From Elusimicrobiota bacterium (GTDB lineage: Bacteria; Elusimicrobiota; Elusimicrobia; UBA1565), in NCBI GenBank assembly GCA_043819795.1, contig JBDREN010000049.1:2379-66378 (forward strand): 64,000 nt of DNA, read 5' to 3'. Shown one piece after another: positions 10,268 through 63,156 of the stretch (the first letter of the stretch is position 1; the number at the start of each line of letters is the position of its first letter). The position numbers and the translations under genes were made by a program. The notes beneath the pieces were generated by a model. The model saw only the letters and a list, made by a program, of their open reading frames with translations, was not told the DNA's origin and searched no databases.

Positions 10268-10334
10268 GGGTCCGTCCCCGTCCGGACCGGTAGCTTTTCA
10301 GCTCGACCGGCGACGATCCTTCATCGGAGCTCGG

Positions 10335-10622
10335 TCAGTCGGTCCATTCCCGCGACCGAAGGGCCCGGACCTCGTCCTCGAGCTCGGACACCCGGTCTCT
10401 GAGGGTCAGCATCAAGTGGGCTATCCCGACGTCGACGCCGAGGGCGCGGCAGACGCGCTCTATGCGCCGCAGGCGCGGGAGGGCCCGCCGGTCCAGCTCG
10501 ACCCCCTCATCGGTCTCGCGGACCTCGATGACGGACTCTTCGATGGACCGCTGCAGGAAATCCGGCTCGATGAGCAGCGTCTCCGAAAGTCTGAGGATCT
10601 GCGACCGCCTAACCCGCCGCAT
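10335..10622 (-). CDS. cbpM: Chaperone modulator CbpM-like (MerR-like small protein)
   Basis: 95 aa, similar to E. coli CbpM. It sits immediately downstream of, and overlaps, a DnaJ-family gene, which is the classic cbpA-cbpM arrangement. Confidence 0.6.
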   Translation of the reverse strand: MRRVRRSQILRLSETLLIEPDFLQRSIEESVIEVRETDEGVELDRRALPRLRRIERVCRALGVDVGIAHLMLTLRDRVSELEDEVRALRSREWTD

Positions 10623-11595: not shown

Positions 11596-11743
11596 CAGTA
11601 CCTGCGATGGTATCAAAACCTGCACGACTCCGCCACCAGAAGGACATGCTCCTGGGCGCGGCTCTCCAAGCGAAATGCTAGAGTATCCGCGTCCCCGCGG
11701 ATACCCGCGTCGGATCGGATCGAAAAGTCTTAAGGAGGCGGCG

Positions 11744-47470: not shown

Positions 47471-47773
47471 GTGTAGTGAACCATAAATCCCTTGACATTC
47501 GGGCGATCGATTTCGGCCTCCGGCTAGGCGCGGGGAGCGCGCATGCCCGCAGGTATGTAAGCGACGAGCAACGACGCCGGAAGCCAAAAGCGCCCGCCCC
47601 CTCCTCCTTGACGCGGACAGCGGCGAAATTCTATGGAAAGGGGAGGCCCGATCCCGGCCGATTCCCACGTTGCTCCTCGGTTGCATAGCTTAAGCCATGC
47701 GCCCTCATCGCGCCTCGAAATCGACTCGGGCTCGGGCCTCCAAATGACAAGGGATTTATGATTCACTACACTA
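47471..47773. mobile_element. Candidate MITE-like element: ~303 bp bounded by ~32-bp imperfect terminal inverted repeats (29/32 core identity, extended similarity with one 12-nt indel)
   Basis: Left arm gtgtagtgaaccataaatcccttgacattcgg. Right arm ccaaatgacaagggatttatgattcactacac is its near-exact reverse complement. The interior is non-coding. Two mirror-image 86-aa ORFs on opposite strands are artefacts of this symmetry. Confidence 0.45.
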
Positions 47774-47941: not shown

Positions 47942-47970
47942 TTGCAAAATGGAACGATATCTGCTATAAT
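47942..47970 (+). promoter_or_regulatory. Sigma-70-type promoter (TTGCAA, 17 bp spacer, TATAAT) for the downstream sigma-54 activator gene
   Basis: TTGCAA at 47942-47947, exactly 17 nt of spacer, TATAAT at 47965-47970, ~40 nt upstream of ATG 48011. Embedded in an unusually AT-rich stretch. Confidence 0.55.
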
Positions 47971-48010: not shown

Positions 48011-49369
48011 ATGCAGTTTGAAGGCCAAGGTCGTTTTTTCGAGACCATCCTCCGTTGTGTCGCTGACGGCGTGTTCACGGTGGACCGCGACTGGCGTATC
48101 ACCTCCTTCAATAAGGCGGCCGAGCGCATCACGGGCATGAGCGCCCGGCAGGCCATGGGCAAGAGATGCTCCGAAGTCTTTCACGCGGACCTCTGCGGTG
48201 ACGGCTGCGCCATCAGGCGGGCTCTCGAGACCAAACGCGAGGTCATCGAGCAGCCGGCCAATATCCGCGACCAGCGCGGCAGGGCGATCCCGATAAGCAT
48301 CAGCGCGGCCGTGCTTCGGGGGGAGGACGGGACCGTCCTCGGCGGGGTCGAGACGTTCCGCGACCTGTCGGCCATCGAGCAGCTCAGGCGCGAGATCCGG
48401 AGCCAGTACACCTTCGAGGAGATCGTCGGCAAGAGCGAGGCTTTCCAGAAGGTGTTCTCCATCCTGCCGGACGTCGCCGCCAGCGAGAGCACGGTCCTCA
48501 TCGAAGGCCCGAGCGGCTCCGGCAAACAGCTCCTGGCGCGGACCATACACAACCTGAGCCCCCGCCGGGATCGGCCTTACGTCGTGGCGAACTGCGGGAT
48601 GATGCCGTCCGGCCGCTGCGCGTCCGAGCTTTTCGGCCACGTGCGAGGCGCCTTCAAGGACGCCAAGGGGGACCGGCTCGGCCGCATCGCGCAGGCCGAA
48701 GGGGGGACCATCTTCCTGGACGAGATCGGCGACCTGTCGATGGAGAGCCAGGTCAGGCTCCTCAAGGTCCTTCGGGACGGAGAATACGAGCCGCTGGGCG
48801 GCGTCAGTCCCCGGCGCGCCGATGTGCGCGTGGTCGCTGCCACGAGCAAGAGCCTGCCGGATCTGGTCGGGCGGGGGCTTTTCCGCGACGATCTCTACTT
48901 CCGCCTGGCGGTGGTGCGGCTGAGCATACCGCCCCTGTCCGAGCGGCGCGAGGACATCCCCTGCCTGGTCGAGCACTTCGTCCAGCGCTTCAACGCCAAG
49001 CGCGGCAAGAGCATCCAGGGGGTGACGCCCGCGGCCATGGAGCTTCTCATGCGCCATGGTTTTCCCGGGAACGTGCGCGAGCTGGAGAACCTGATCGAAT
49101 GCGGCTTCGCTCTATGCCACGGCGGATGGATGGACGTCGGCCATCTGCCCGAGGATCTGAGGCCGTCGCGGCGGCCGGGCGCCGCCGGGCGCCGCCTCGA
49201 GGGCGCGTCCCTGCTCCGGCACATCGAGGCGGACGCGGTCCGCGCCTCCTTGGGGCGGAACGCGGGCCATCTCGGCCGCACGGCCGAGGAGCTGGGCATC
49301 AGCCGGACCACGTTGTGGCGCAAGATGAACAAGTACGCCATCGAAGCGGACGAGTTCCGGGCCGGTTGA
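48011..49369 (+). CDS. Sigma-54-dependent transcriptional activator with N-terminal PAS sensor (no receiver domain) and C-terminal Fis-type HTH
   Basis: PAS (VFTVDRDWRITSFNKAAERITG) with a Cys cluster (CSEVFHADLCGDGC). AAA+ sigma-54 interaction domain (LIEGPSGSGKQLLA, GAFKDA, ESQVRLLKVL...FRDDLYFRL). HTH_8 (ELGISRTTLWRKMNKY). Confidence 0.85.
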   Translation: MQFEGQGRFFETILRCVADGVFTVDRDWRITSFNKAAERITGMSARQAMGKRCSEVFHADLCGDGCAIRRALETKREVIEQPANIRDQRGRAIPISISAAVLRGEDGTVLGGVETFRDLSAIEQLRREIRSQYTFEEIVGKSEAFQKVFSILPDVAASESTVLIEGPSGSGKQLLARTIHNLSPRRDRPYVVANCGMMPSGRCASELFGHVRGAFKDAKGDRLGRIAQAEGGTIFLDEIGDLSMESQVRLLKVLRDGEYEPLGGVSPRRADVRVVAATSKSLPDLVGRGLFRDDLYFRLAVVRLSIPPLSERREDIPCLVEHFVQRFNAKRGKSIQGVTPAAMELLMRHGFPGNVRELENLIECGFALCHGGWMDVGHLPEDLRPSRRPGAAGRRLEGASLLRHIEADAVRASLGRNAGHLGRTAEELGISRTTLWRKMNKYAIEADEFRAG

Positions 49370-49388
49370 CCCGGGGGGAGAGAACGCG

Positions 49389-50762
49389 GTGAGCACCCAA
49401 AGGAAATACAGCTACTTCGTCGAGCCCAAGGCGCTCGAGGTCGCGGAGCGTCCGCGAAAATTCCTCATGGCATTCGCGGCCGTGCTGAAGAACGCCAGCT
49501 ACGGGCTGGCGCTCGATACGTACGCGCGCCTGAGCACCAAATGCGGGCGTTGCGTGGCCTCCTGTCAGCTCTATCAGACCACGCGCGAGGAGCGGGACAT
49601 CCCCTGCCATCGCTCCGAGCTCCTGCTGCGGGTGTACCGGCGGTACTTCACGCATTCGGGCCGCCTCAAGGCCAAGATATTCAGCGGTTTCGAGTTGACG
49701 GACGCCTACTTGGACGAGATGGGCGAGGCCTACTACCGCTGCACCGCCTGCCGGCGGTGCAAGGCCACCTGCCCCATGGGCATCGACCACGCCCTGGTCA
49801 CTCATCTGGCCCGGTGGCTGCTCTCGGAGATCGACGTCATCCCCAAGGCGCTGTTGGTGGCGACGCGCGAGCAGCTCGAGGGCGTCGGCAATACCTCGGC
49901 CATCCCGGTCCCCGCGCTCAAGGACACCTGCGAGTTTCTGGAGGAGGAGCTCAAGGAGATCACCGGCGTGGACATCAAGTTCCCCATGGATGTCGAGGGC
50001 GCCGAGTACGTCTTCTTCCCGGCGGTCTCGGACTATCTGCTCGAGGCGGACACCCTCATGGGCAACGCGGCCGTCATGCACGTCACCGGCGGGTCGTGGA
50101 CCATCGGCACGGGCAACTACGACGGCATCAACTACGGCCTGTTCTACAGCGATCGCATGATGGAGCGGATCGTCAACAACGTCGTCAAGGAGGTCCGCCG
50201 CCTCAAGGGGAGGAAGGTCCTCGTCGGCGAATGCGGCCACGCCACTCGCAGCGCCTGGTACGTGCCGGCCTTCGGCGGCCCGGACGCGCCGCCGGTGGTC
50301 AATTGCTTGCAGTACGCCCACCGGATGCTCGAGGCCGGGAAGCTCCCCCTGAAGAAAGAGCTTATCAAGGAGCGGGTCACCTATCACGATCCGTGCAATA
50401 TCGCCAGGAGCGGGCGGATCACCGAGGAGCCTCGGGAGCTCCTTAAGGCTATCTGCGGGGACTTCGTGGAGATGACGCCGAACCGCGCGGAGAACTACTG
50501 CTGCGGCGGAGGCGGCGGCACGGTCTCCATCGACGAGATCCGGGCTTTCCGCACGGGTCTCATGGGAAAGCGCAAGGCGGATCAGATCCGCGCGACCGGC
50601 GCCAAATACGTCGTGTCGCCCTGCGCCAACTGCAAGAAACAGCTCCGCGAGGTCTGCGAGGACAACGGCCTCAACGAGGTCGAGGTCGTGGGCCTGCACG
50701 ACCTGCTGCTGAAGGCGATCGACTTCGGGGTCCCCGAGAAGAAAGGAGAGGACGATGGGTGA
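49389..50762 (+). CDS. DsrK/HdrD/HmcF-like iron-sulfur oxidoreductase (CCG-domain protein)
   Basis: Ferredoxin-type CxxCxxCxxxCP motifs (CGRCVASCQ; CTACRRCKATCP) and C-terminal CCG-domain motifs (PCNIA...YCCGGGGG...SPCANC). Confidence 0.75.
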   Translation: MSTQRKYSYFVEPKALEVAERPRKFLMAFAAVLKNASYGLALDTYARLSTKCGRCVASCQLYQTTREERDIPCHRSELLLRVYRRYFTHSGRLKAKIFSGFELTDAYLDEMGEAYYRCTACRRCKATCPMGIDHALVTHLARWLLSEIDVIPKALLVATREQLEGVGNTSAIPVPALKDTCEFLEEELKEITGVDIKFPMDVEGAEYVFFPAVSDYLLEADTLMGNAAVMHVTGGSWTIGTGNYDGINYGLFYSDRMMERIVNNVVKEVRRLKGRKVLVGECGHATRSAWYVPAFGGPDAPPVVNCLQYAHRMLEAGKLPLKKELIKERVTYHDPCNIARSGRITEEPRELLKAICGDFVEMTPNRAENYCCGGGGGTVSIDEIRAFRTGLMGKRKADQIRATGAKYVVSPCANCKKQLREVCEDNGLNEVEVVGLHDLLLKAIDFGVPEKKGEDDG

Positions 50763-51465
50763 GCTAGAGATCTGGACCGAGTGGGCGCGCGGGCCGCTGT
50801 TCAGGGCCGCGCTGGCGTTCATGATCCTGGGCCTTCTGCGTCACGCGGCGTTGACCATATGGGAGCTGGCGGGGATCATGTACCGCGCCGGCGACAAGGC
50901 CTTCCCGTGGAGGCGGGCATTCTCCGCCACGCTAAAATGGCTTTTCCCGGTGGGGCAGATCAAGAACCGTGTCCTCTACAGCCTGACCACGCTCGGCTTC
51001 CATGCCGCCGTCATCATCGTTCCCGTTTTTCTCGCGGGCCACGTCGCGCTCTGGGAGCGGGGCACGGGCCTGTGCTGGCCGACCATCCCCAACGGCGTGG
51101 CGGACGTGCTGACGATCATGGCCGTGCTCGCGGCGGCCTTGCTCGTGGCGGAGCGCGCGGCCGCGCGGGACTCCCGGGCGCTGAGCCGCTTCCAGGACTA
51201 CGCCTTGCCCCTGCTCGTGGCCGCGCCCTTCGCGACCGGCTTCCTGGTCATGCATCCGGCTTTAAACCCGTTCGGCCATGAAGCGACGATTCTGGTCCAC
51301 GTGTTGAGCGCGGATATTCTGTTCATCCTCATCCCGCTGACCAAGCTGAGCCACATGATCCTGCTCCCGGGCACGCAGATCATCTCCGAGCTGTCCTGGC
51401 ATTTCCCGCCGGACGCCGGCAGGAAAGTGGGCGTCGATCTCGGGAAGGAGAAGCAACCCATATGA
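50755..51465 (+). CDS. DsrM/HmcE/NarI-like di-heme b membrane subunit
   Basis: Five TM helices with conserved His pairs placed as in the nitrate-reductase gamma family. Translationally coupled to flanking genes. Confidence 0.65.
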   Translation: MGELEIWTEWARGPLFRAALAFMILGLLRHAALTIWELAGIMYRAGDKAFPWRRAFSATLKWLFPVGQIKNRVLYSLTTLGFHAAVIIVPVFLAGHVALWERGTGLCWPTIPNGVADVLTIMAVLAAALLVAERAAARDSRALSRFQDYALPLLVAAPFATGFLVMHPALNPFGHEATILVHVLSADILFILIPLTKLSHMILLPGTQIISELSWHFPPDAGRKVGVDLGKEKQPI

Positions 51466-52595
51466 AGAAGCCCGTCGCCATCCTTACGGACACGACGCTC
51501 TGCACCGGCTGCGAGGAATGCGTCGCGGCGTGCAAGAAGGAGAACGGCCTGGGCGAGGATCGCCGGTGGCGCTGGCAAAGCTCCGTGAGCGAGCTTTCCG
51601 CGTCGCGCTTCACCGCAATCATCCGTCGGCCCGGCAACCGCTACGTCCGCCAGCAGTGCCGGCACTGCGTGGACCCGGCGTGCGTGAGCGCCTGCATCGT
51701 GGGCGCGCTGCGGAAGACGGAAGAAGGCGCGGTGGTCTACGACCAGGATAAGTGCATCGGCTGCCGTTACTGCATGCTGGCCTGCCCCTACGGGATCCCG
51801 CGCTACGATTGGGAGAAGCCGATCCCGTACATCAGGAAGTGCACGCTCTGCTATGACAGGCTTGAGGAGGGAAAGGCCCCCGCCTGCGTGGAGGCCTGCC
51901 CCGAGAAGGCGACGATATTCGGCTCCCGCTCCGATATGCTGGCCGAGGCCCATCGGCGCCTGAAACGGCATCCCGGGAAGTACGTCCAGAAGGTCTACGG
52001 GGAACGCGAGGTGGGGGGGACGTCGGTCCTCTACATCTCGGACATACCCCTTGATTTCCTCGGCTGGCAGACCGATCCCGGCGAGCGGCCGCTGCCGGAC
52101 CTCACGTGGGCCGCCCAAAGGAAGATCCCGGCCGCGGCTCTGGGGGTGTTCGGGCTCATGGGCGGCACCTACTGGGTCATCGGCCGGAGGATGCAGGCCG
52201 CGGCGCGGGCGGGCCTGAAAGACGCGCCCCGGGAAGGGGACGCCCCGTCCGTGGGGCACGGGCATCCGGAGCAGGGAGGGGCCCTCTCCGGCCTGAAGAC
52301 GGCCCTGTGGATGCCTCTCGGCGTGGTGGCGGCCGTGACCATCGTGCGTTTCGCGCGGAATCTGGACGCGGCCGCGAGCCTCGGGGACGGAGCCCTCTGG
52401 ACCCTGTGGCTCGCCCTCGGCGTGGCGGGAGGCACCGGTCTCGGGGCGGGGATCCATTGGCTCGCCGCCCGCCGCAAGAAGGCGCCGGAGGAGGACGCGG
52501 AGCCCGAGGAAGGAACTCCCACCCCGCCCGTCCAGGCGTCGAAGACTTCCGTTCCCAAGCAGATCGCGGGCGACGGCGGCCCGAAGGAGCGATAG
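51462..52595 (+). CDS. DsrO/HmcB/PsrB-like four-cluster [4Fe-4S] ferredoxin-type subunit with C-terminal membrane anchor
   Basis: Four CxxCxxCxxxC(P) motifs (CTGCEECVAAC, CRHCVDPACVSAC, CIGCRYCMLACP, CTLC...ACVEACP) and 2-3 C-terminal TM helices. No obvious Tat signal. Confidence 0.7.
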   Translation: MKKPVAILTDTTLCTGCEECVAACKKENGLGEDRRWRWQSSVSELSASRFTAIIRRPGNRYVRQQCRHCVDPACVSACIVGALRKTEEGAVVYDQDKCIGCRYCMLACPYGIPRYDWEKPIPYIRKCTLCYDRLEEGKAPACVEACPEKATIFGSRSDMLAEAHRRLKRHPGKYVQKVYGEREVGGTSVLYISDIPLDFLGWQTDPGERPLPDLTWAAQRKIPAAALGVFGLMGGTYWVIGRRMQAAARAGLKDAPREGDAPSVGHGHPEQGGALSGLKTALWMPLGVVAAVTIVRFARNLDAAASLGDGALWTLWLALGVAGGTGLGAGIHWLAARRKKAPEEDAEPEEGTPTPPVQASKTSVPKQIAGDGGPKER

Positions 52596-52599
52596 GGCG

Positions 52600-54561
52600 A
52601 TGATGCCTCTGAGAAGAATCAAGAGCCTGCTCTGGTTCGTCCTGGGCGCGGGCATGGTGACCATCGCCGCGCGGCTGCTCACCGGGCTCGGCGCGGTCAC
52701 CAACCTGTCCCACAACGTTTCCTGGGGCCTGTGGAACGCGGTCAAGATCAGCATCGTGCCCCTCTCGGCCGGAGGGTTCGTTTTGGCTGCGATCGTCTAC
52801 GTCTTCCATATGGAGAGGTTCCGTCCCGTGCTCCGTTTGGCCATCCTTACGGGGTTTTTGGGCTACTCGACCTTCGCCACGATGCTCATGTTCGATATCG
52901 GGGTGCCCTACCGGATATGGCATCCCATGGTCTACTGGCAGCACCATTCCGTGCTCTTCGAAGTGGCGTGGTGCGTGATGCTGTATCTGACCGTGCTGGC
53001 CCTCGAGTTCTTGCCCAACGTGCTGGAGCATCCTCTGCTGAAGCACCCCCTGCTCCAGAAGGGATACAAGCTCCTGAAGAGCGCGACCGTACCCCTGGTG
53101 ACCGCGGGGATCGTGCTGTCCACGCTGCACCAGTCGTCGTTGGGCTCGCTGTTTTTGATCGTCCCCCACCGTCTCGATCCCTTATGGTACAGCCCGCTGA
53201 TACACGCGCTCTTCCTGGTCTCCGCCGTCGGGATGGGGCTTCTGGTGATCGCCGTGGAGGCGGTCCTGATCGAGCGTCTCTACGGCGTCAAGGCGCCGCT
53301 GGACGTCCTCGCCCCTTTGGCCCGCGCGGGCGCGGTGGTGATGGCCCTCTTCTTGGCCGTCAGGCTGGCCGACCAGGTCGCTCGCGGGGTGCTCCCGGGT
53401 GCTCTGAGCACATCTCCGATGGCGGCGGCATTCGTCCTTGAGACTCTGATCGCCTCGATCGTGCCGCTGCTGCTTCTGCGCAGGAGCGTCCGCGAGAGCC
53501 GCGGGGGCCTGTTCGCCTGCTCTCTTTCCGCGGTGCTGGGAGTCGTCTGGTACAGGTCGAACGTCGCCTTGCTGGCCATCGACTGGGGCGAGGCGGCCTA
53601 TTTCCCGGCGTGGACCGAGTTCGCCCTGTGCTTCGGCATACTGGCCGGGTCGGGCTTGGTGTTCTTCTTGCTGCTGGAGAACCTGGACATTTATTACGGG
53701 CCGGCCGCATCCGGCCGTGACCGCGAGCCGCAGGTGCCGGGGTTGGCGTTCGAGGCTTGGCTGGCGGACGCGAGGATCACCGCGGCCAGGCGCTATTCCC
53801 TGTTCATCGTGGCGGGCGCGGCGGCGGCCGTCTTGTTTCTCCCCGAGGGCACGGTGTTCGGAGCCAGGCCCGCGGACACGCCGGCGGCGCAGGCCCGGCG
53901 GGTCCGGGGCTTGTCGGTCCGGACCGGCGGCGGACGCGTCAGCACGCTGCGCCTCGGCGAGAGGCCGGTCCCCGCTAAGGGCCGAGTGAAGCGCCTGCCG
54001 CTTTACCTGATTGACGGCGACCGCGATGAGGACGCGGTCCTCTTCGATCACGCGGGCCATGTCAAGCGGGCGGGCGGCGAGAAGCGCTGCGGGGTGTGCC
54101 ATCACCTGAACATGCCGCTCGACGAGAACACCTCCTGCCATGAATGTCATCGCGACATGTACGAGCCCGCCTCCGTGTTCAGCCACGCATCGCATGTGCG
54201 CGAACTCGGGGGGAACGCGGGCTGCGTCAAGTGCCATGAGGATCCTCTCGTGGTGAAGGACCGCCGGACGGCCGTCGCTTGCGGGGAATGCCACTCCGAT
54301 TCGGCGGCAAAGGGCTCCTTCGTCGAGGCGCCGGGGCCGAGGTGGGGGGCCGCGCCGGGCTACGCGGACGCGATGCACGGCCTCTGCGAGAGTTGTCATA
54401 AGAAGAAGGCGAAAGAAGAGCCGGGCCGTTATCCCGCGGCGCTGGGGCGTTGCGCCGCCTGCCACGATACGGACCGCCCCATGGATATCCGTCGGATGGC
54501 GCCGCGAAGTGATAGAATGCGGGCCATGCGCGCCGAGGAACGCGGGCTCTCGGGCGGCTGA
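52600..54561 (+). CDS. NrfD/PsrC/DsrP-like polytopic membrane subunit fused to a C-terminal hexaheme cytochrome c domain (DsrJ/HmcA-like)
   Basis: ~10 TM helices of the NrfD family over ~430 aa, then a soluble C-terminal domain with six CxxCH motifs (CGVCH, CHECH, CVKCH, CGECH, CESCH, CAACH). Confidence 0.7.
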   Translation: MMPLRRIKSLLWFVLGAGMVTIAARLLTGLGAVTNLSHNVSWGLWNAVKISIVPLSAGGFVLAAIVYVFHMERFRPVLRLAILTGFLGYSTFATMLMFDIGVPYRIWHPMVYWQHHSVLFEVAWCVMLYLTVLALEFLPNVLEHPLLKHPLLQKGYKLLKSATVPLVTAGIVLSTLHQSSLGSLFLIVPHRLDPLWYSPLIHALFLVSAVGMGLLVIAVEAVLIERLYGVKAPLDVLAPLARAGAVVMALFLAVRLADQVARGVLPGALSTSPMAAAFVLETLIASIVPLLLLRRSVRESRGGLFACSLSAVLGVVWYRSNVALLAIDWGEAAYFPAWTEFALCFGILAGSGLVFFLLLENLDIYYGPAASGRDREPQVPGLAFEAWLADARITAARRYSLFIVAGAAAAVLFLPEGTVFGARPADTPAAQARRVRGLSVRTGGGRVSTLRLGERPVPAKGRVKRLPLYLIDGDRDEDAVLFDHAGHVKRAGGEKRCGVCHHLNMPLDENTSCHECHRDMYEPASVFSHASHVRELGGNAGCVKCHEDPLVVKDRRTAVACGECHSDSAAKGSFVEAPGPRWGAAPGYADAMHGLCESCHKKKAKEEPGRYPAALGRCAACHDTDRPMDIRRMAPRSDRMRAMRAEERGLSGG

Positions 54562-54565
54562 AACC

Positions 54566-55681
54566 ATGGCCCCCAAAGAGATAGAAAGCTGGCTTCGATC
54601 GAGCCTCTTTAACGAGGTCCCGGTGAGCATCTGCGTGATCGACCGGGGTTTCCGGATCATCGAGGCGAACCGGAGGTTCAGGGAGGAATACGGCCCCTGG
54701 AAGGACCGGGCGTGCCACGAGGTCTGCAAGGGTCTGGAGGAGCCCTGCGAGCGTTGCGGCGCGGTCAAGACCTTCTCGGACGGGCGCGTGCGCAACCGGG
54801 AGGAGACGGGAGCGGGCGGGAAGCACTACCTGGTGCACATGGTCCCCATCACCACCGACGGCGGGGATATCTCCTACGTCATCGAGACGTTCACGGATAT
54901 CACGCAGGTGAAGCAGCTGGAGGGCGAGAAGCGCGAAGCCGAGCGTCTGGCCGCCGTCGGCGAGACCGTGGCCGGCATCGCCCACGGCATGAAGAACGTG
55001 CTTACCGGGCTCGAAGGCGGCGTCTATGCCGTCAATACGGGCATCCAGCATGGCGACGACGAGAGGATCACCGAAGGCTGGGCCATGCTCGAGGAGAATA
55101 TCGCGCGCATCTCGGAGTTTGTCAAGGAGTTCCTGGCTTTCTCCAAGGGGCGCATCGCGCGGGTGGCCTTCGTGGACCCCAACGCCCCGGCGCGGGCGGT
55201 CTTTGAGCTCTTCCGGGAGAAGGCCGCGCAGGCGGGCATCGAGCTGAAGGCGGACCTGCAAGAGGGGATTCCTCCCGCGCCCCTGGACGAGCAGGGGATC
55301 CACGCCTGCCTGGCCAACCTCGTATCGAACGCCCTGGACGCCTGCTCCATGGGCGAGCAGCGGCGCGCGTGCGTGGTGACGATTCGCTCCCGGGAGCGCA
55401 GCGGGACGCTAGTGTACGAGGTTGCGGACAACGGCCGCGGGATGGACTACGAGATCAGTAGGAAAGTGTTTTCGAGGTTCTTCAGCACGAAGGGCTCGGA
55501 CCGGGGCACGGGTCTGGGGCTGCTCACCACTAAGAAGACCATCCACCAGCACGGCGGCCGGGTCTCGTTCAGCTCCGAGGAGAGCAGGGGCTCGGTGTTC
55601 CGCATCGAGCTTCCCCGGGAAAGACTGCCCAAGCCGGGCGGGAAGCCCGCCCAACGACAGGCCGCGGAAGGAGACGCCTGA
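54566..55681 (+). CDS. PAS-domain sensor histidine kinase (cytoplasmic; PAS with Cys4 cluster)
   Basis: PAS (ICVIDRGFRIIEANRRF) with CHEVCKGLEEPCERC. H-box AHGMKNVL, N/G boxes (LVSNALDA, GTGLGL). Start set at ATG 54566. Confidence 0.8.
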   Translation: MAPKEIESWLRSSLFNEVPVSICVIDRGFRIIEANRRFREEYGPWKDRACHEVCKGLEEPCERCGAVKTFSDGRVRNREETGAGGKHYLVHMVPITTDGGDISYVIETFTDITQVKQLEGEKREAERLAAVGETVAGIAHGMKNVLTGLEGGVYAVNTGIQHGDDERITEGWAMLEENIARISEFVKEFLAFSKGRIARVAFVDPNAPARAVFELFREKAAQAGIELKADLQEGIPPAPLDEQGIHACLANLVSNALDACSMGEQRRACVVTIRSRERSGTLVYEVADNGRGMDYEISRKVFSRFFSTKGSDRGTGLGLLTTKKTIHQHGGRVSFSSEESRGSVFRIELPRERLPKPGGKPAQRQAAEGDA

Positions 55682-56229
55682 TGGACAAAGAGAACGCCAA
55701 AGGACGCGCCGAGGATAAGACCGTACTCGTGGTCGATGACGAGCCGAACGTGCGCCGCCACCTGGCCCACATCCTAGAGGACGCCGGCTTCAAGGTCCTT
55801 ACGGCCTCCGATGGGGATGAGGCCCTGAAGACCATCCGGGAGCGGCGCCCGGACATCATCTCGCTCGACCTGGTCATGCCGCGCAAGAGCGGGCGCCGGC
55901 TGCTCTACGAGCTGAAGAAGGATAAGGAGCTCTCCCGCATCCCGGTGGTCATCGTCACCGCGCACGCCCAGGACGAGCTGGGCCAGAGCGACATGGAAGC
56001 CATCAGGGAGAGCATGATCATATCGGGCCCGGGCTTCTATCTGGAGAAGCCGGTTAGGCCCATGGACTACGTGCGCTGCATCCAGGAAGCCCTGGGCATC
56101 GAAGTGGCGGATCAAGCCGCGGACAAAGTCAGCCTCAAGGACGAGCTGAAGCGGCAGATGCAGGGGGCGGAGCCGCACGCGCTGCGCCGCGCCCTCGAGG
56201 CGTTGAGAAAGAAAGGCCCGCCGCGCTAG
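55681..56229 (+). CDS. Response regulator, receiver domain with C-terminal extension (no DNA-binding domain recognised)
   Basis: VLVVDDEPNVRRHL...DIISLDLVMPRKSG...VVIVTAH receiver signature. Confidence 0.75.
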   Translation: MDKENAKGRAEDKTVLVVDDEPNVRRHLAHILEDAGFKVLTASDGDEALKTIRERRPDIISLDLVMPRKSGRRLLYELKKDKELSRIPVVIVTAHAQDELGQSDMEAIRESMIISGPGFYLEKPVRPMDYVRCIQEALGIEVADQAADKVSLKDELKRQMQGAEPHALRRALEALRKKGPPR

Positions 56230-56248
56230 AGGGCCGAGGAGACCTGCG

Positions 56249-56602
56249 ATGGCGAAGAAGATCCTGATCGTCGAAGACGAGCCGCACGTCGTGAAGTATC
56301 TCGAGATGTTCCTCCACGACGCGGGCTTCCAGACGGTATCCGCGAGCGACGGTCAGACGGGTCTGGAGCTGGCCAAGCGCGAGAAGCCGGACCTGGTGAT
56401 CCTGGACCTTATGATGCCGAAGAAGACGGGGACGGACTTCTACCGGAAGCTCTCCAGGGACAAGGAGCTCGGCGATACCCCCGTCATCGTGGTCAGCGGT
56501 CTGGCCGGCCGAGATCTCGTCGTCAGGAAGCCTGCGGCGGTGTTCGACAAGCCCCCGGACCGCGAGGGGCTCATCGCCGCCATCAAGAAAGCCCTCCCGT
56601 AG
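56249..56602 (+). CDS. Single-domain response regulator (CheY-like)
   Basis: ILIVEDEPHVVKYL...DLVILDLMMPKKTG..PVIVVSG. Confidence 0.8.
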   Translation: MAKKILIVEDEPHVVKYLEMFLHDAGFQTVSASDGQTGLELAKREKPDLVILDLMMPKKTGTDFYRKLSRDKELGDTPVIVVSGLAGRDLVVRKPAAVFDKPPDREGLIAAIKKALP

Positions 56603-56651
56603 AGCCCCGGCTTCTGGAGCTTGCCCGGAGCAGGTATCCGGGCGACCGCCC

Positions 56652-56676
56652 CGGCAGGAACGTTGCGTGCTATAAT
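56652..56676 (+). promoter_or_regulatory. Candidate sigma-54 (-24/-12) promoter cGGcaggaacgttGCg overlapping a TATAAT box, upstream of the hydrogenase operon
   Basis: GG at 56653-56654 and GC at 56665-56666, separated by exactly 10 nt (consensus TGGCAC-N5-TTGCA). TATAAT at 56671-56676. A sigma-54 activator is encoded at 48011. Confidence 0.4.
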
Positions 56677-56708
56677 CCTGTGAGAACGCGGCGCCGGGGG
56701 GAAGTCCG

Positions 56709-57752
56709 ATGCTGTACAAGGTGATCACGAAGGCCGAGTTTCGGAAGTTCGTCGACGGCCTGATCCAGGACAACCAGACTATAGGCCCCAAGCGGGTCGC
56801 CACGGACGCGAAAGGCAAGCCCGTCTACCAGTTTGTCGAGGTCCGCTCCTTCGACGAGTTGGACCTCGACTACACGATCACCTACTCCTCGGTGAAGAAT
56901 TTCTTCCACCCCTTCCGCGAGGAGCTGTCTCGTTTCAAGCTGAAAGATGACGATTGGGAGCAGGAGATCGAATACCGCGTCAATCCGAGGGTCATCATCG
57001 GCGTGCGGCCGTGCGACATCAACGCCTTGGCGATCCTGGACAAGGTGTTCTTGAGCGGGAGATTCCCCTCGCCGTACTACATCGCCCGGCGCCGGAACAC
57101 CTTCCTGATCGGAATGGACCATCTGCCCCTGGATGACTGCTTCTGCGAGTCCCTGAACCGGCACGCCCCGCGCGAGGGGTTCAACCTCTACTGCTCGGAC
57201 ATCGGGGACAGATACTATCTCTCGATCCTTTCCTCAAAGGCCTTCAGCTTCCTCAAGAACGTGAGGACGAGCGAGCCCTCCAAGGCGGACAACAAAAGAT
57301 ACATCGAGAGAAGAAAGCTCATCAAACGGAGCTTCAAGACCAAGGTGGAGGTCTCGGGCCTGCCGAGCTTCCTGGACATCGAGTTCAAGTCCCCGATATG
57401 GGATAAATGGGGGGACAAGTGCCTGAACTGCGGGACATGCGCCATGGTCTGCCCCACGTGCTACTGCTACGGGGTGGAGCAGTCCGTGGACGTGGACCTG
57501 AAGACCGCCCGCAAGGAGCGCATGCTGTACTCCTGCAACGTCGTGGATTTCGCGGAGGTGGCCGGAGGGCACAACTTCAGGCCGAAGAAGGCGGACAGGC
57601 TGAAGTACCGGTTCTATCACCATTACAGGGGTTTCGAGGAGAACGCCGACGAGCAGATCTGCGTTGGCTGCAACCGGTGCGGCAGGGCCTGCCTGGCGGG
57701 GATCAACCCGAAGGACGTGATCAACGACTTGAGGCTGGAGACCGGAGAATGA
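56709..57752 (+). CDS. Group 3b [NiFe]-hydrogenase beta subunit / anaerobic sulfite reductase AsrA-like iron-sulfur subunit
   Basis: AsrA/HydB-like Cys clusters ([16 protein letters not shown]; [14 protein letters not shown]). Confidence 0.75.
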
Positions 57753-58663
57753 AGGCGGGATTCAAAATACCCAGGCAGGACATCAATCTCGAGCCGTTCA
57801 TGACGGCGCCTCCCCAGTTCAACCGCAAGACCATCGTCATGCGCACGGACAAGGTCTACAAGTGCGAGCTCATCAACATCGTCGAGCTGACCTCCATGGA
57901 GAAGCTCTTCCATCTCAAGATCATCGACCCCCGCGAGAGGAAGCTGTTCTCCTTCCGGCCGGGACAGTTCGTGATGGTCCAGGTGCCCGGCTCCGGGGAG
58001 GTCCCGGTCTCCATATCGAGCTCGAGCAACAACCGGGAGTTCCTGGAGCTGTGCGTCCGCAGGGCGGGGCGCACCACCGGCATGCTGCACCGGGCCCGGA
58101 TCGGCGCGAAGGTGGGGATCCGCGGGCCCTTCGGCTCGTCTTTCCCCATGGAGGAGATGGCTGGCCACAACGTCCTGCTGATCGCCGGAGGGCTCGGCCT
58201 GGCCCCCCTGCGCGCCCCCATCTGCTGGGTCAACGAGCGCCGGGACCAGTACGGCGACGTCCACATCCTCTACGGCGCCAAAGAGCCTTCCCAGATGCTC
58301 TTCACGTACGAATTCAAGGAATGGGAACGGGTGAACCACATCAATCTGCTGACCATCGTCGAGAAGGCGGACAAGGCCTGGAAGGGCGGGACGGGCCTCA
58401 TCACCGAGCTCTTCAGGGATTTCTCCATCAAGCCGCTCGACACCTACGCGATCGTGTGCGGGCCGCCCGTCATGTTCAAGTTCGTGTGCGGGCATCTGGA
58501 CTCCATCGGGGTTCCCATGAACCGCATGTTCGTCTCCCTGGAGCGGCGGATGCACTGCGGCATGGGCAAGTGCTGCCGGTGCATGGTGGGCTCGACGTTC
58601 ACCTGCGTGGAAGGCCCCGTGTTCGACTACTGGAGCGTCATGAATTTGAAGGAGGCGATTTGA
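57749..58663 (+). CDS. Group 3b [NiFe]-hydrogenase gamma subunit / AsrB-like FAD-NAD(P) oxidoreductase with [2Fe-2S] cluster
   Basis: Ferredoxin-reductase-type FAD/NAD-binding fold ([20 protein letters not shown]) and C-terminal CGMGKCCRC...C cluster. Start set at ATG 57749, overlapping the upstream stop. Confidence 0.75.
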
Positions 58664-59415
58664 GATACCTCGGCATCGAGCTCAAGAAGCCCAGGATCGC
58701 CGTCTTCGACTTCACCTGCTGCGAGGGCTGCGAGCTGCAGCTGGCGAACAAGGAGGAGACCCTGGTCGATTTCCTCTCCCTTGTCGAGGTCGTGAACTTC
58801 CGGGAGGTGTCCTCGGACAAGAGCGAGGACTACGAGATCGCCTTCGTGGAGGGGGCGGTCTCGAGGGAGGATGAGGTCGCTCGCCTGAAGAAGATCAGGG
58901 TGAACGCGAAGGTCCTCGTGGCTTTCGGCGCCTGCGCCTGCTTCGGCGGCGTGAACCAGATCAAGAACAAGTTCCCGCTCAAGTCGGTCGTCCGAGAGGT
59001 GTACGGCAGGCACCGCGTGGCCACGTCCAAGGTGCGGAAGATCAGCGAAGTGGTCAAAGTGGATCTCGAGATCCCGGGCTGTCCGGTCTCCAAGAAAGAG
59101 GTGGAAAGGATCGTCGTCGCTCTGGTCACGGGCGCGGGCATCAGCCTGCCGAAGTACCCCGTCTGCCTCGAGTGCAAGGCGAAGTGCAACGTCTGCGTCC
59201 TGGACCTCGGGCAGATCTGCCTGGGTCCGATCACGCGCGCGGGCTGCGATTCGCCCTGCCCATCCGGGGGGACCGCGTGCCTGGGCTGCAGGGGGCCGGC
59301 GCCCGAGGCCAATTACGAGTCGTTCCTGCGGATATTGAAAGACCGGGGCTTCAAGGCCCCGGAGATCAAGGAGAGGCTCGAGTTCTACGGCGCCTTCAAC
59401 GGGGTCATGAGATGA
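58660..59415 (+). CDS. [NiFe]-hydrogenase small (delta) subunit, group 3 type
   Basis: Proximal-cluster Cys ligands ([10 protein letters not shown]; GACACFGG; PGCP). TTG start at 58660 after AGGAGG. The track ORF in this frame is artificially extended upstream. Confidence 0.75.
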
Positions 59416-60686
59416 AGCGCGCCAGGGAGATCACCGTACGCCATGTGACCCGGGTCGAGGGCCACGGCGACATCCATATCAAGGTGAAAGACGGCCGGCT
59501 CGTGGATGCGCGGTGGGCCGTGGTGGAGACCCCGCGTTTCTTCGAGGCCATGCTCAAGGGCATGTCCCATGATCTGGCGCCCATACTGACGGCCAGGATC
59601 TGCGGCATCTGCTCCATAGGCCACTGCCTGGCGAGCCTGAGGGCGGTGGAGAGGGCCATGGACGTCAAGGTCCCGGAGACCGCGCGGCTGTTGCGCCTGC
59701 TCGCCAAGCACGGCGAGACCCTTCAGAGCCACGCGCTCCACGTGTTCTTCCTGTCCGCGCCCGATCTCTTCAAGGTGGGGAGCGTCATCCCCCTGATCAA
59801 GTCCCATCCCGAGGTCGTCGGCATCGCGGCCAGGCTCAAGAAGCTGGGAAACGACGCTTGCGACCTGATCGCGGGGCGGACCACGCACCCGGTGAGCCTG
59901 GTGGTGGGCGGGCTCAGCAGGCTGCCCACGGACAAGCAGATCGAGGAGCTGAGGGGCGCGTTCCTTGCGAGGCTGCCGGACATGCGCGCGGCCGTCGACC
60001 TCTTCAAGACGCTTCCCATGCCGGACTTCCAGCGGGAGACGGAGTTCGTGTCATTGAAGGGCCAGGGGGACTATCCCTGGATCGGGGGGGATCTCGTGTC
60101 GTCCGACGGCGTCCGCAGGCCGGAGGACGGCTACCTGGCCATGACGAACGAATACAAAGTGGAGTTCAGCACCTCGAAGTTCGCCAAGCTGAGTAGGGAG
60201 TCCTTCGCGGTCGGCGCCCTGGCGAGGTTCAACAACAATCACAAGCATCTGCGGCCGGAGGCGAAGGGAGCCGCCAAGGCGCTGGGCTTGAGTCCCCTGA
60301 GCCACAACCCTTTCATGAACAACGTGGCCCAGCTCGTGGAATGCTATCACGTGATGCTGGAGTCCATCGAGTTGCTGGACGGGCTTCTGGGCCGCCGGGG
60401 AAAGACCGCGTCCCGTCCTTATAAAGTGAAGGCCGGCCGGGGCGTCGCCGCCGTGGAGGTGCCCCGGGGCATCCTCTACCACGAATACGAGCTCGACAAG
60501 AAGGGCAAGGTCGTCAGGGCGAACTGCGTCATCCCCACCACGCAGAACCACGCCAACATCCACCACGATCTCCGGGCGCTCGCCGCGCGGCTGGTGCGGG
60601 AAGGCAAAAGCGACGGGGAGATCACTTTGCTGAGCGAGATGCTGGTCCGGTCCTACGACCCCTGCATCTCCTGCTCCGTCCACTAG
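59412..60686 (+). CDS. [NiFe]-hydrogenase large (alpha) subunit, group 3b type
   Basis: N-terminal Ni-Fe ligands [10 protein letters not shown] and C-terminal DPCISCSVH. The protein ends exactly at the His, with no C-terminal extension. Start ATG 59412 overlaps the small-subunit stop. Confidence 0.85.
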
Positions 60687-61591
60687 AGCAGATCTTTCGC
60701 CTCGGGGAAGCTCGTCTGGGTGCCGGACGAGCGCACGCTGAGGGCGGCCACGCGGTTGGCCCGCCGTACCGCTTCGGGCAGCGCCGTGCCGGAGGCCAGG
60801 AAGAAGGCCAGGCTGCCCACGAACGCGTCCCCGGCTCCGGTCGTGTCGACGGCCTTCACGGGCTCGACGGGCACGTGCTCGGCGCCGCCGCCGGCGACTA
60901 GCAGGCTGCCCCGCTCTCCCAGGGTCAGGATCACCGTCCCCGCTCCGCGCTCCACGAGGACGCGCGCCGCGGCCTCGGCCTCCTTTGGGGTCCCCACCGG
61001 CATGCCGGTCAGGAGCTCGGTCTCGCTCTCGTTGGGGCAGAAGACGTCGCTCAGCCGGTAGAGCTCCTCCGGCAGGTCCGGACGGGCCGGCGCCGGATTG
61101 AAGATGGTCCTTACTCCTTCCTGGCGGGCGATGCGCAGGGCGGCCAAGGAGACCTCCAGGGGGATCTCCAGCTGGCAGACCAGTATCCGGGCGGCGGCGA
61201 TCGACCGGCGCCCGGCCTCGATCTCACCCTCGGTCAGCAGATCGTTGGCTCCGGTCACGATGATGATGGAGTTGCGCCCTTCCGGGTCCACGGCGATCGG
61301 GGCCACTCCCGAGAACGCCCGGTCGGTGAGATGCACATGCCGGGTGTCCACTCCCAGGGACTCGAAGTTCTTCAAGGTGTCCTTGCCGAAGACGTCGTCT
61401 CCCAGCTTGGCCACCATGGCGACGTCGCCTCCCAGTTTGGCGGCCATGACCGCCTGGTTGGCGCCCTTGCCCCCGAATCCCATGTGGAAGCGGGTCCCAT
61501 GCAGAGTCTCGCCCACGCGGGGCAGCCTCGGCACGTAACTGATCAGATCGAGATTGCATGCCCCCACGACGCAGATCTTCGGTCTATCCAT
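60683..61591 (-). CDS. rbsK: Ribokinase (PfkB family)
   Basis: GGKGANQA and DTTGAGDAF motifs. 302 aa. Confidence 0.85.
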   Translation of the reverse strand: MDRPKICVVGACNLDLISYVPRLPRVGETLHGTRFHMGFGGKGANQAVMAAKLGGDVAMVAKLGDDVFGKDTLKNFESLGVDTRHVHLTDRAFSGVAPIAVDPEGRNSIIIVTGANDLLTEGEIEAGRRSIAAARILVCQLEIPLEVSLAALRIARQEGVRTIFNPAPARPDLPEELYRLSDVFCPNESETELLTGMPVGTPKEAEAAARVLVERGAGTVILTLGERGSLLVAGGGAEHVPVEPVKAVDTTGAGDAFVGSLAFFLASGTALPEAVRRANRVAALSVRSSGTQTSFPEAKDLL

Positions 61592-61706
61592 GTGGCTTCC
61601 TCCTGAGCGTGCGGCCGGCCAGCTCGTAGATGGTATGAAAAAAAGCGGGCGGCGGACCCGGGCCCGAGTCCCGCCGGAAGCATCCTACATGTGTTCGGTC
61701 AGGTTA

Positions 61707-61735
61707 TTGATTTGGGAGTACAGTTAAGCTATACT
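61707..61735 (+). promoter_or_regulatory. Sigma-70-type promoter (TTGATT, 17 bp spacer, TATACT) for the MerR-family gene, overlapping a 16/20 imperfect palindrome
   Basis: TTGATT at 61707-61712, TATACT at 61730-61735. Palindrome gctatactatatagagtagc spans the -10 region. Confidence 0.45.
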
Positions 61736-61756
61736 ATATAGAGTAGCTTTGTAATA

Positions 61757-62272
61757 ATGGTAGACCCTGCAAAGGCTTTTACCGAACCTGTGATTGCGAT
61801 CGGGACGCTGGCTGAGAAGAGCGGCCTTTCCGTATCCGCGATCCGGAAGTACGAGGCGGAGGGCCTGCTCATTCCCTTTCGGACGCCTTCCGGCCATCGC
61901 CTGTTTTCTCACGAGGACATGGACCGGGTGAAGATCATCCGCCACATGATCCAGGAGCTGGGCCTGAACATCGAGGGCATCAGGAGGCTGCAGGCGCTGC
62001 TTCCGTGCTGGGAGCTGGTCCGGTGCTCGGAGGATAAGCGAAGCGAGTGCCCGGCCTACAAAGACAACTCCAAGCCGTGCTGGATGGTCCGGGGAGGGGA
62101 CTGCAGCGCGCGCGGGAACGAATGCCGCAGCTGCGCGGTGTACCGGTTCGGCTCGCAGTGCACCGAGGACATCAAGCGCGTGGTGCACAACCGGGCGGCT
62201 CCGGAGGAGCTGAGCGAGGAAGTGCGGAAGGCTTTGAACAGGCTGGAACAACCTGAGAAGGGGGATAGATGA
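61757..62272 (+). CDS. MerR-family transcriptional regulator with C-terminal Cys-rich (8 Cys) domain
   Basis: MerR HTH (IGTLAEKSGLSVSAIRKYEAEGLL) and a C-terminal segment CWELVRC...C..C...C..C..C..C. Confidence 0.75.
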   Translation: MVDPAKAFTEPVIAIGTLAEKSGLSVSAIRKYEAEGLLIPFRTPSGHRLFSHEDMDRVKIIRHMIQELGLNIEGIRRLQALLPCWELVRCSEDKRSECPAYKDNSKPCWMVRGGDCSARGNECRSCAVYRFGSQCTEDIKRVVHNRAAPEELSEEVRKALNRLEQPEKGDR

Positions 62273-63156
62273 TAGTCATACTCACCTATGTCGCGTTGAT
62301 CGTGTTCGGGGCGGGATTCCTTTATAGAGGCTTAAGCATCGCGATGATGCCGGTGCATCTGCGATGGGAGCTCGCGCCCGTGCCGCACGAAAAAGGAAGA
62401 GCCCATTACGGGGGGTCTTACCTGGAGGAGTTCGAGTGGTGGACCAAGCCCAGGGAGAAGTCGCTTGTGGGCGAAGCCTTCTACATGTTCCAGGAGATCG
62501 TCTTCCTCAAGGGAGTCTGGGAGCACAACCGCTCTTTGTGGGTGTTCTCCTTCCCGTTCCATTTCGGTTTGTACCTGCTCGTCGGCATGGGGGGGTGCCT
62601 CATCCTGGCGTCTTTCGGCGTCCCATTCTTCGGCCCGGCGGCTTTGGCCCTCGGAGGAGCGGGCTACGTGCTGGGCAGCGTCGGGACCTTGGGGCTCCTT
62701 GCCAGGCGCGCCTTCGACCCCAAGCTCAAGCCCTTCACCAGCATGGCGTCGTATTTCAACCTCCTGTTCCTGGCGGCGGTGTTCGTGACCGGCTGCGTCG
62801 CGTTGTTCTCGGGGGGCTTTCTGGCGGACATGACCTCCTACCTCAAGGCCGTCGCCTTCGCCGAGGCGGGGCCGGCGCTGGGCGCCGCGATCTCGACGCA
62901 CATCGCCGTGGGGATGCTCTTCCTCGTCTACCTGCCGTTCACCTACATGATGCATTTCGTGGCCAAGTACTTCACCTACCACGAAGTGCGGTGGAACGGC
63001 GAGCCCATGTCGGGCAATGACGCCATGCAGGAAGAGGTCAAGAAGCTGCTCGGGCAGACCGTGACGTGGTCCGCTCCACACATCGGCGCCGACGGCAAGA
63101 AGAACTGGGTCGATATCGCCACCGCGGGGACAGCCAAGGAGAAAAAAGATGCCTAA
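62269..63156 (+). CDS. NarI/DsrM/HdrE-like heme-b membrane subunit (second copy)
   Basis: Five to six TM helices with conserved His residues. Confidence 0.55.
   Translation: MIVILTYVALIVFGAGFLYRGLSIAMMPVHLRWELAPVPHEKGRAHYGGSYLEEFEWWTKPREKSLVGEAFYMFQEIVFLKGVWEHNRSLWVFSFPFHFGLYLLVGMGGCLILASFGVPFFGPAALALGGAGYVLGSVGTLGLLARRAFDPKLKPFTSMASYFNLLFLAAVFVTGCVALFSGGFLADMTSYLKAVAFAEAGPALGAAISTHIAVGMLFLVYLPFTYMMHFVAKYFTYHEVRWNGEPMSGNDAMQEEVKKLLGQTVTWSAPHIGADGKKNWVDIATAGTAKEKKDA

Follow-up and report, generated by a model that had tools for sequence, protein, structure and literature searches.

Conserved cysteine clusters in three regulators associated with DsrMK-, Hmc- and Tmc-like membrane redox modules: candidate Fe-S or metal sensors in Elusimicrobiota and other phyla

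Introduction

The DNA analysed here, called the window throughout, is a stretch of 64,000 nucleotides (nt) from an Elusimicrobiota bacterium (assembly GCA_043819795.1, contig JBDREN010000049.1, positions 2,379 to 66,378). It encodes an Hmc-like membrane redox operon, a soluble [NiFe] hydrogenase and the beginning of a separate DsrMK-like operon, together with three regulators whose sensory regions contain clustered cysteines: a sigma-54-dependent activator, a histidine kinase and a MerR-family protein. The locus raises the question of what these cysteines do. An initial annotation proposed that they serve iron-sulfur (Fe-S), metal or thiol-disulfide sensing, and that they tie the expression of the Dsr-like complex and the hydrogenase to the redox state. 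Our own answer, to which we assign a probability of about 0.6, is that the three proteins belong to a recurring set of cysteine-cluster regulators, dedicated to membrane redox modules that combine a CCG protein (DsrK/HmcF/TmcB-like) with a NarI-like subunit, and acting by the mechanism set out in the Discussion. A tie between redox sensing and DsrMK/Hmc/Tmc-type complexes is supported by homology and synteny. Coordinates are those of the window, and genes lie on its forward strand unless stated otherwise.

Results

The sigma-54 activator has an OrpR-type PAS domain

The activator gene (48011-49369) encodes a sigma-54 enhancer-binding protein of 452 amino acids (aa), in which a PAS domain is followed by the AAA+ sigma-54 interaction domain and an HTH_8 domain (Pfam PAS_9, residues 19-120; Sigma54_activat, 138-304, E 3.9e-56; AAA_lid_14; HTH_8, 402-442). 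The PAS domain contains the cysteine triad C53-x8-C62-x3-C66, in CSEVFHADLCGDGC (48167-48208, with cysteine codons at 48167, 48194 and 48206), and a glutamate, E55, two residues past the first of these cysteines. Of 120 homologs (49-74% identity), 120, 120 and 119 retain the respective cysteines, and 116 have Asp or Glu at position 55. The initial annotation had placed the cluster correctly but read it as four cysteines, C-x8-C-x3-C-x2-C; it has three, C-x8-C-x3-C, and the fourth cysteine of the domain, C16, lies outside the cluster and is Ser in 99 of the 120 homologs. In total, 332 short homologs of this PAS domain were found. The first two homolog searches gave only proteins of less than about 250 aa, largely fragments, and the genomic context was taken from contig look-ups and a genome scan.

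The triad is that of OrpR (DVU2106) of Desulfovibrio vulgaris Hildenborough, a sigma-54 activator type described in 2021, the PAS domain of which binds a [4Fe-4S]2+ cluster that is converted to [3Fe-4S]1+ by mild oxidants (PMC8359166). The conserved residues C52, C61 and C65 of OrpR, with an Asp/Glu at position 54, are implicated; a Cys-to-Ser exchange or deletion of the PAS domain makes the protein constitutive, and a rise of about 140 mV in redox potential abolishes its activity (PMC8359166). The window activator and OrpR share the PAS-AAA+-HTH (helix-turn-helix) architecture, the identical C-x8-C-x3-C spacing, with the numbering offset by one residue, and the acidic residue two positions past the first cysteine, and both come from anaerobes. 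They differ in their surroundings: orpR sits between the two divergent orp operons that it controls, whereas the window activator gene has an ATP-binding cassette (ABC) solute-binding protein gene upstream and precedes the Hmc-like operon, a context that it shares with the activators on two other contigs, L064 and L004. Such neighbours, Hmc-like rather than orp genes, show that the activator is not an OrpR ortholog; it is, judged from its sequence and surroundings, a paralog or functional analog, and a new example of a type already known. By homology, C53, C62 and C66, probably together with E55, would be the ligands of a [4Fe-4S] cluster in its PAS domain. Sequence searches of the PDB with this domain returned generic PAS hits and no structure with the cysteine motif.

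In the OrpR-type activators of three Ignavibacteria loci (L047, L052 and L055, at about 9450-10910) the triad is one residue shorter, C-x8-C-x2-C (CQDVFHSDICENC), so the spacing between the second and third cysteines is not fixed in that family.

A candidate sigma-54 promoter, TGGAACGATATCTGC, with the GG-N10-GC pattern intact, lies at 47950-47964, 46 nt upstream of the activator ATG in an AT-rich intergenic region. A second candidate, CGGCAGGAACGTTGC, with two mismatches, is found at 56652-56666, 43 nt upstream of the hydrogenase operon, and in L064 a sigma-54-like candidate site (11497-11511) stands 36 nt upstream of the redox operon. The likely target of the activator is the co-oriented unit formed by its own gene and the Hmc-like operon; any link to the hydrogenase would be tentative, drawn only from adjacency and one weak sigma-54-like site.

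The kinase belongs to a large family with a homologous three-cysteine PAS domain

The histidine kinase encoded after the Hmc-like operon is a soluble protein with one PAS domain and a HATPase_c domain. The open reading frame was called from a GTG at 54509 to 55681 (in this numbering, Pfam PAS_4 covers residues 34-135 and HATPase_c residues 260-371); the ATG at 54566 is the likelier start because it lies just past the upstream stop at 54561, and homologs align from the MAPKE sequence that begins there. The PAS domain contains the motif C-x3-C-x6-C-x2-C in CHEVCKGLEEPCERC (54713-54757; cysteine codons at 54713, 54725, 54746 and 54755). This motif had been described correctly for the window protein, but only three of its cysteines hold across the family. 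The first, third and fourth (C-x10-C-x2-C) are kept in all 78 PAS domains, at 33-57% identity, that were collected from 39 fetched loci, while the second is Tyr in 75 of the 78.

A full-library HMMER search with the kinase PAS domain returned 706 cluster representatives at E <= 1e-10, and 5631 when the threshold was relaxed to E <= 1e-3. Among the best 148 representatives the triad is present in 276 of 328 PAS domains, and in 173 of the 174 domains that score at least 80 bits; each of these 148 proteins has at least one triad PAS domain, usually two. The additional second cysteine is shared by 50 of 276 domains in the family at large (about 18%). When 24 kinase PAS sequences at 26-49% identity were aligned, the three cysteines were the only invariant columns. 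The members of the family are soluble kinases with two to twelve PAS domains, annotated merely as generic PAS_4 or PAS_9. Set beside the 332 homologs of the activator domain, the 706 representatives at the stricter threshold contradict the earlier remark that PAS domains with such cysteine clusters are rare.

Comparison of the kinase-type and activator-type PAS profiles with hhalign gave a probability of 97.5% (E 5.3e-12) over 109 columns, with all three cysteine columns aligned; small indels explain the difference in spacing between the two triads. By this comparison the kinase domain is a homologous variant of the OrpR-type PAS domain, attached to a different class of output and belonging to a much larger family that is uncharacterised. 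Fe-S binding by the kinase domain is predicted on the strength of this homology. Attachment of a c-type haem was ruled out, the sequence having no CXXCH.

The 2023 classification of PAS domains names just NreB for Fe-S. NreB of S. carnosus has the motif CX2CX11CX2C and a [4Fe-4S] cluster, and NreB of B. licheniformis has CX2CX11C and a [2Fe-2S] cluster with a labile sulfur ligand (PMC13478379). Like these proteins, the window kinase is a cytoplasmic histidine kinase with an N-terminal PAS domain that holds three or four cysteines in a helical region, and the three-cysteine cluster, which leaves one coordination site open, is a possible parallel to its triad. It differs from them in its C-x10-C-x2-C core with an optional cysteine at +4, the order and spacing of which are unlike the NreB motifs, and in its family, whose members usually have tandem PAS domains and whose profile is homologous to that of the OrpR type.

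Sequence and profile searches of the PDB found generic PAS hits and no solved structure with the kinase triad; no NreB chain was returned either, and the presence of the 2026 NreB PAS structure in the searched copy is unconfirmed. An exact look-up of the window kinase gave no record, and a literature search found no paper on a C-x10-C-x2-C PAS domain.

The MerR regulator carries an eight-cysteine tail

The third regulator (61757-62272) is a MerR-family protein of 171 aa, made up of a winged HTH (residues ~13-80) and a C-terminal domain with eight cysteines. The HTH matches Pfam MerR_1 (residues 15-79, E 6.6e-16) and is nearest in sequence to GlnR/TnrA/HspR; the PDB profile and fold hits, GlnR, TnrA, SoxR and CueR, cover residues ~7-90. 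As first annotated, the tail has eight cysteines, at residues 84-135: C84-x5-C90-x7-C98-x9-C108-x7-C116-x6-C123-x2-C126-x8-C135 (62006-62161), a domain of 52 residues with two P-C-W motifs. Homologs number 595, the closest of which, at 99% identity, comes from an Elusimicrobiota metagenome-assembled genome. Each of the eight cysteines is kept in 118-120 of 120 homologs (54-99% identity), and the consensus of the tail reads LLPCW[DE]LLPC-x7-CPAY-x6-PCWMIKGLDC-x6-CRxC-x-VYRFGSLC.

The tail matches no Pfam family, and profile and fold searches of the PDB, in which only the HTH gave hits, found no sequence or fold relative for it. All 20 tails tested match the NCBIfam model NF045718, 'two-CW domain', and no other model, with 16-17 bits against a cut-off of 35 (best E among the 20, 0.0017). 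The matched region takes in both P-C-W motifs, whereas about 27 profile positions are absent from the tail; with scores below threshold, the tail is a distant relative at best. A literature search turned up no paper in which 'two-CW' has this meaning, so no function can be carried over from the comparison. A search for MerR regulators in connection with DsrMK gave nothing relevant, the G20 MerR paper being concerned with choline.

SoxR is a MerR-family regulator with a C-terminal [2Fe-2S] cluster, bound by four cysteines in a CX2CXCX5C motif that follows a long dimerisation helix. Both proteins have a MerR-type winged HTH followed by a C-terminal cysteine cluster as a potential redox sensor. 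In the window protein, however, eight cysteines are packed into a domain of 52 residues that begins immediately behind the HTH, the CX2CXCX5C motif is absent, the tail has no sequence similarity to that of SoxR, and the SoxR model TIGR01950 matches the HTH alone. The tail is without a characterised relative; SoxR is the nearest functional analog and shares the idea of the scaffold only.

A promoter is predicted upstream of the merR gene, with TTGATT at 61707-61712 and TATACT at 61730-61735, separated by a 17-nt spacer. In and just past it lies the predicted operator GTACAG-TTAAG-CTATAC-TATATA-GAGTAG (61718-61746), the half-sites of which (GTACAG, 61718-61723; CTATAC, 61729-61734; GAGTAG, 61741-61746) fall in the spacer and overlap the -10 element. 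The hexamers GTRTAG and CTAYAC occur upstream of MerR genes at 9.5 per kb, compared with 0.43 per kb across the loci, a 22-fold enrichment. Their usual arrangement is GTRTAG-N5-CTAYAC-N6-GTRTAG, with a pitch of 11-12 bp, and 29 of 56 MerR upstream regions have at least two of them. The window contains exactly one operator site, directly upstream of merR; consequently, the protein most likely autoregulates the merR / NarI-like / DsrK-like operon.

The regulators recur beside CCG/NarI-like modules, with MerR in place of the activator at two loci

A genome scan, with one genome per species, gave 59 MerR loci from Elusimicrobiota, Planctomycetota, Gemmatimonadota, Ignavibacteria, Acidobacteriota, Riflebacteria and KSB1, of which 49 were informative in having at least 2.5 kb of downstream sequence. 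At 47 of these 49, a NarI-like gene and a DsrK/HmcF/TmcB-like CCG gene stand directly downstream of merR on the same strand, in loci that cover Elusimicrobiota, Planctomycetota, Gemmatimonadota, Ignavibacteria, Acidobacteriota and Riflebacteria. Of the three regulators, MerR, although the least known, thus has the tightest genomic linkage. In one of the two exceptions, L014, the pair lies upstream and is divergent, as it also does in L007, which has too little downstream sequence and was not counted. Three types of module are found: a 295-aa NarI-like protein with a 533-aa DsrK-like protein, as in the window (39 loci); a 242-aa protein with a 454-aa HmcF-like protein (6 loci); and a full Hmc-like operon (2 loci). 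At one locus of the second type, L003 of Planctomycetota (8541-9125), a gene for a Macro-domain protein is inserted between merR and the membrane subunit gene. L001, an Elusimicrobiota contig (JBDRPD010000105.1), has a second MerR copy, which stands ahead of TmcD and TmcC genes whose scores exceed the NCBIfam cut-offs.

Two loci of Planctomycetota, L054 (Phycisphaerales) and L020 (Planctomycetia), show an exchange of regulators. There the MerR gene precedes an HmcF gene whose product is 77-79% identical to the window HmcF, followed by HmcE, HmcB, the HmcC-cytochrome and a Cys-PAS kinase, and MerR holds the position of the OrpR-type activator of the window. At three Ignavibacteria loci, MerR, the DsrMK-like pair, a single-domain response regulator and an OrpR-type activator follow each other in a row. 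The kinase recurs too: 35 of the 59 loci, all fetched through MerR alone, carry a Cys-PAS triad kinase within about 6 kb, usually with a tandem pair of PAS domains.

The cassette of activator, HmcF-E-B-C-cytochrome, kinase and response regulators is kept on contigs L064 and L004, including the order kinase-regulator-regulator; the PAS domain of the L064 activator is 71% identical to that of the window, with the triad intact. The Hmc-like gene order itself recurs in L064, L004, L054 and L020. The initial annotation had proposed such a comparison as a check of its reading, and the cysteine spacing is indeed retained in homologs encoded beside DsrMK/Hmc-like genes, in the fetched loci including L064 and in the 78 kinase domains counted above.

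The window-type genes resemble those of the Hmc, Tmc and DsrMKJOP complexes of sulfate reducers, with HmcF/E/B/C-, TmcD/C/B- and DsrK/M-like members, and a DVU0259-like single-domain response regulator is a further likeness to Desulfovibrio systems. We take it that in Desulfovibrio the hmc operon is regulated by Rrf1/Rrf2 and that DVU0258-0260 adjoin tmc. The window regulators are, in contrast, an OrpR-type activator, a Cys-PAS kinase and an eight-cysteine MerR, not Rrf2, and most of the window subunits score under the equivalog cut-offs.

Some of the loci have additional neighbours. In L001, at 4348-6709 and 1801-4047, genes resembling those of AprB and AprA (APS-reductase_C, FAD_binding_2) and one for a SulP/STAS sulfate transporter lie just upstream of the MerR-DsrMK-like and MerR-TmcDCB loci, a hint that this lineage of Elusimicrobiota may have a dissimilatory metabolism of sulfate or sulfite. 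A 285-aa protein with a CxxCxxCC domain (PF03692), another cysteine-rich protein, is encoded immediately upstream of merR in L001 (7068-7925) and L002 (1364-2221). In L064, genes for small Nitro_FeMo-Co (dinitrogenase iron-molybdenum cofactor-like) proteins, at 9628-9906 and 11547-11918, flank the OrpR-type activator gene and precede the Hmc-like operon; the window cassette lacks them.

Gene organization of the window

The Hmc-like operon (49389-54561) starts with an HmcF/DsrK-like CCG protein (49389-50762) and continues with an HmcE/TmcC-like membrane subunit (50755-51465), an HmcB-like 4Fe-4S protein (51462-52595) and an HmcC/NrfD-like subunit fused to a multihaem cytochrome c (52600-54561). 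All four score under the NCBIfam equivalog cut-offs and are, consequently, relatives rather than orthologs. The C-terminal cytochrome of the fusion protein (Cytochrom_CIII, Cytochrome_C7) takes the place of a separate HmcA-type cytochrome; the fusion is kept in L064 and L054. The kinase gene is followed by two genes for single-domain response regulators, of 182 aa (55681-56229) and 117 aa (56249-56602), the latter DVU0259/DivK-like (NF045717, 135 bits with a cut-off of 160). Next comes a four-subunit soluble [NiFe] hydrogenase (56709-60686; Pfam Fer4_22, FAD_binding_6/NAD_binding_1/DHODB_Fe-S_bind, Oxidored_q6 and NiFeSe_Hases), which from its subunit composition we read as group-3b-like, and then a ribokinase gene on the reverse strand (60683-61591).

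The three regulators had been described as flanking the redox island. This fits the activator and the kinase, but not merR, which comes only after the hydrogenase and ribokinase genes and heads a second, separate operon of DsrMK-like type. The merR stop codon is overlapped by the start of a NarI/DsrM-like membrane subunit gene (62269-63156; Pfam Nitrate_red_gam, weak HmcE/TmcC/DsrM matches), which is followed by a gene for a DsrK/HdrD-like Fe-S protein, identified from its translation and from Pfam Fer4_8 and cut by the window end (63215-64000). The full-length ortholog of this protein in L001 reaches 319 bits on the NCBIfam DsrK model, the cut-off being 400.

Upstream of the activator stand the genes of a 1324-aa hybrid histidine kinase (41706-45680) and of the ABC solute-binding protein (45713-47005). 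On reading its sequence, the hybrid kinase appears to have a GAF-like N-terminus, several PAS domains, two receiver domains and an Hpt domain. It serves as an internal control: about 530 residues of its PAS region contain 5 scattered cysteines and no cluster. Each of the three sensor modules occurs once in the window, a search for further copies having found none. Between the solute-binding protein gene and the activator gene, a 24-nt inverted repeat with one mismatch (47471-47494 and 47748-47771; GTGTAGTGAACCATAAATCCCTTG and CAAGGGATTTATGATTCACTACAC) encloses about 250 nt. Its outer ends, GTGTAG and CTACAC, are MerR operator half-site hexamers, yet they are about 290 nt apart. The repeat has no Rfam match, nor does an Rfam scan of the window give any; it may represent what is left of a small mobile element, or be coincidental.

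Discussion

The three regulators are proposed to work as follows. In the activator, by analogy with OrpR, the [4Fe-4S] PAS domain would confine sigma-54-dependent activation to low redox potential; once oxidised, the cluster would turn the activator off. The PAS triad of the kinase most likely holds an Fe-S cluster, the state of which would set autophosphorylation and signalling to the two single-domain response regulators. The MerR protein would bind the conserved operator overlapping the -10 element of its own promoter and control the merR / NarI-like / DsrK-like operon by the redox or metal state of its cysteine domain, in which the eight residues may form two four-cysteine sites, either Fe-S clusters or zinc sites that double as thiol switches. 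For the cofactor of the kinase and of MerR, the direction of regulation and the target promoters, this scheme relies on prediction from sequence. The sensing function suggested in the initial annotation is thus backed for the activator by the published mechanism of its PAS type, and extends to the kinase by homology, while the metal content of the kinase and the MerR protein is a matter of prediction. The proposed redox tie to the Dsr-like complex and the hydrogenase agrees with the synteny in part: MerR most likely controls its own NarI-like/DsrK-like operon, and not the Hmc-like island or the hydrogenase.

A number of observations weigh against this scheme. The match between the activator and OrpR was made from published residue numbers and spacing, not by direct alignment, and the homologs of the activator PAS domain and of MerR are all at least 49-55% identical, so that their invariance is partly a matter of relatedness. 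In the kinase family, the residue two past the first cysteine is Glu in about half of the domains and Gln in many; with the acidic residue only about half conserved, the fourth ligand of the kinase may differ, may come from the extra cysteine in a minority of members, or may be absent. Three or four cysteines could equally bind zinc. The MerR tail has a single CxxC pair and no canonical ferredoxin motif, and its AlphaFold model is of middling quality (predicted local distance difference test scores of 62-79). The sigma-54 pattern is not above chance across the window, with 35 matches and 47 expected from shuffled sequence; consequently, the candidate sites, the one in L064 included, are weak leads, and the target of the activator is assigned from gene order. 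Finally, the predicted MerR promoter has a spacer of 17 nt, whereas the promoters of classical MerR-type activators have spacers of 19-20 nt. Together with the GlnR/HspR-like HTH, this suggests that the protein represses rather than activating in the classical way.

The first alternative, which we think unlikely, is that the cysteines of the kinase PAS domain and the MerR tail hold structural zinc, which would stabilize the fold without any part in sensing, the signals then being PAS-pocket ligands or partner proteins. Three or four cysteines with one CxxC pair are a typical set of zinc ligands, canonical Fe-S spacing is absent, a zinc-binding cytoplasmic PAS domain is known in WalK, and the model of the MerR tail consists mostly of short helices and loops, like small zinc-knuckle domains. 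However, the triad of the kinase aligns column for column with that of a PAS type shown to bind [4Fe-4S], and the families are concentrated beside Fe-S and haem redox modules, as would fit a redox input. A purely structural role leaves the tight synteny unexplained, and zinc-thiolate sites can themselves be redox switches.

It is also conceivable, if rather improbable, that the cysteines are metal-free thiol/disulfide or persulfide switches, poised by the thiol or sulfane-sulfur pool of the DsrK/HdrD-type CCG subunits. Proteins of the DsrK/HdrD type reduce disulfide or trisulfide substrates, and the regulators are encoded beside such subunits; thiol-based sensors exist both among PAS proteins (ArcB) and in the MerR family (NmlR), and NmlR is among the PDB relatives of the window MerR. 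The homologous PAS domain of OrpR, on the other hand, uses a cluster and not a disulfide. Eight invariant cysteines exceed the need of a disulfide switch, and three, an odd number, in the PAS domains suit the ligation of a cluster better than pairing in disulfides. Lineage noise or compositional chance, for which the non-conserved cysteines in the first-noted motif regions (C16 of the activator, the second cysteine of the kinase) might speak, has a negligible probability and is refuted by the conservation of the core cysteines across hundreds of homologs down to 26% identity, in a window whose neighbouring multi-PAS kinase has no such cluster.

Within the scheme of a dedicated set of cysteine-cluster regulators, a further and more specific possibility can be considered, which taken as a whole we regard as doubtful. 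The three-cysteine PAS domain of the kinase and the two-CW-like tail of MerR may be undescribed cofactor-binding sensor modules that form a cross-phylum toolkit for CCG/NarI-type modules. As part of the same possibility, three protein ligands would leave an iron site open, which could report sulfide, persulfide or the thiol substrate of the complex, and not the bulk redox potential. The three-cysteine [2Fe-2S] cluster of B. licheniformis NreB is a recent precedent for a signal of this kind (PMC13478379). If this combined view is true, the interchange of activator and MerR would mean that two unrelated DNA-binding scaffolds read one chemical signal.

Modules of the DsrMK, Hmc and Tmc types have a central place in the energy metabolism of sulfur and hydrogen. 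Paralogs of them also occur widely in phyla that are not known for sulfate reduction, among them Planctomycetota, Gemmatimonadota and Ignavibacteria. The present comparison extends OrpR, the only characterised Fe-S PAS protein among sigma-54 activators, to a second and much larger family of kinases, and it defines a new cysteine-rich sensor domain on a MerR scaffold, with a predicted operator. For the modules themselves, a dedicated set of regulators would offer an experimental handle, as whatever switches MerR or the kinase should prove to be the complex's own signal or its substrate.

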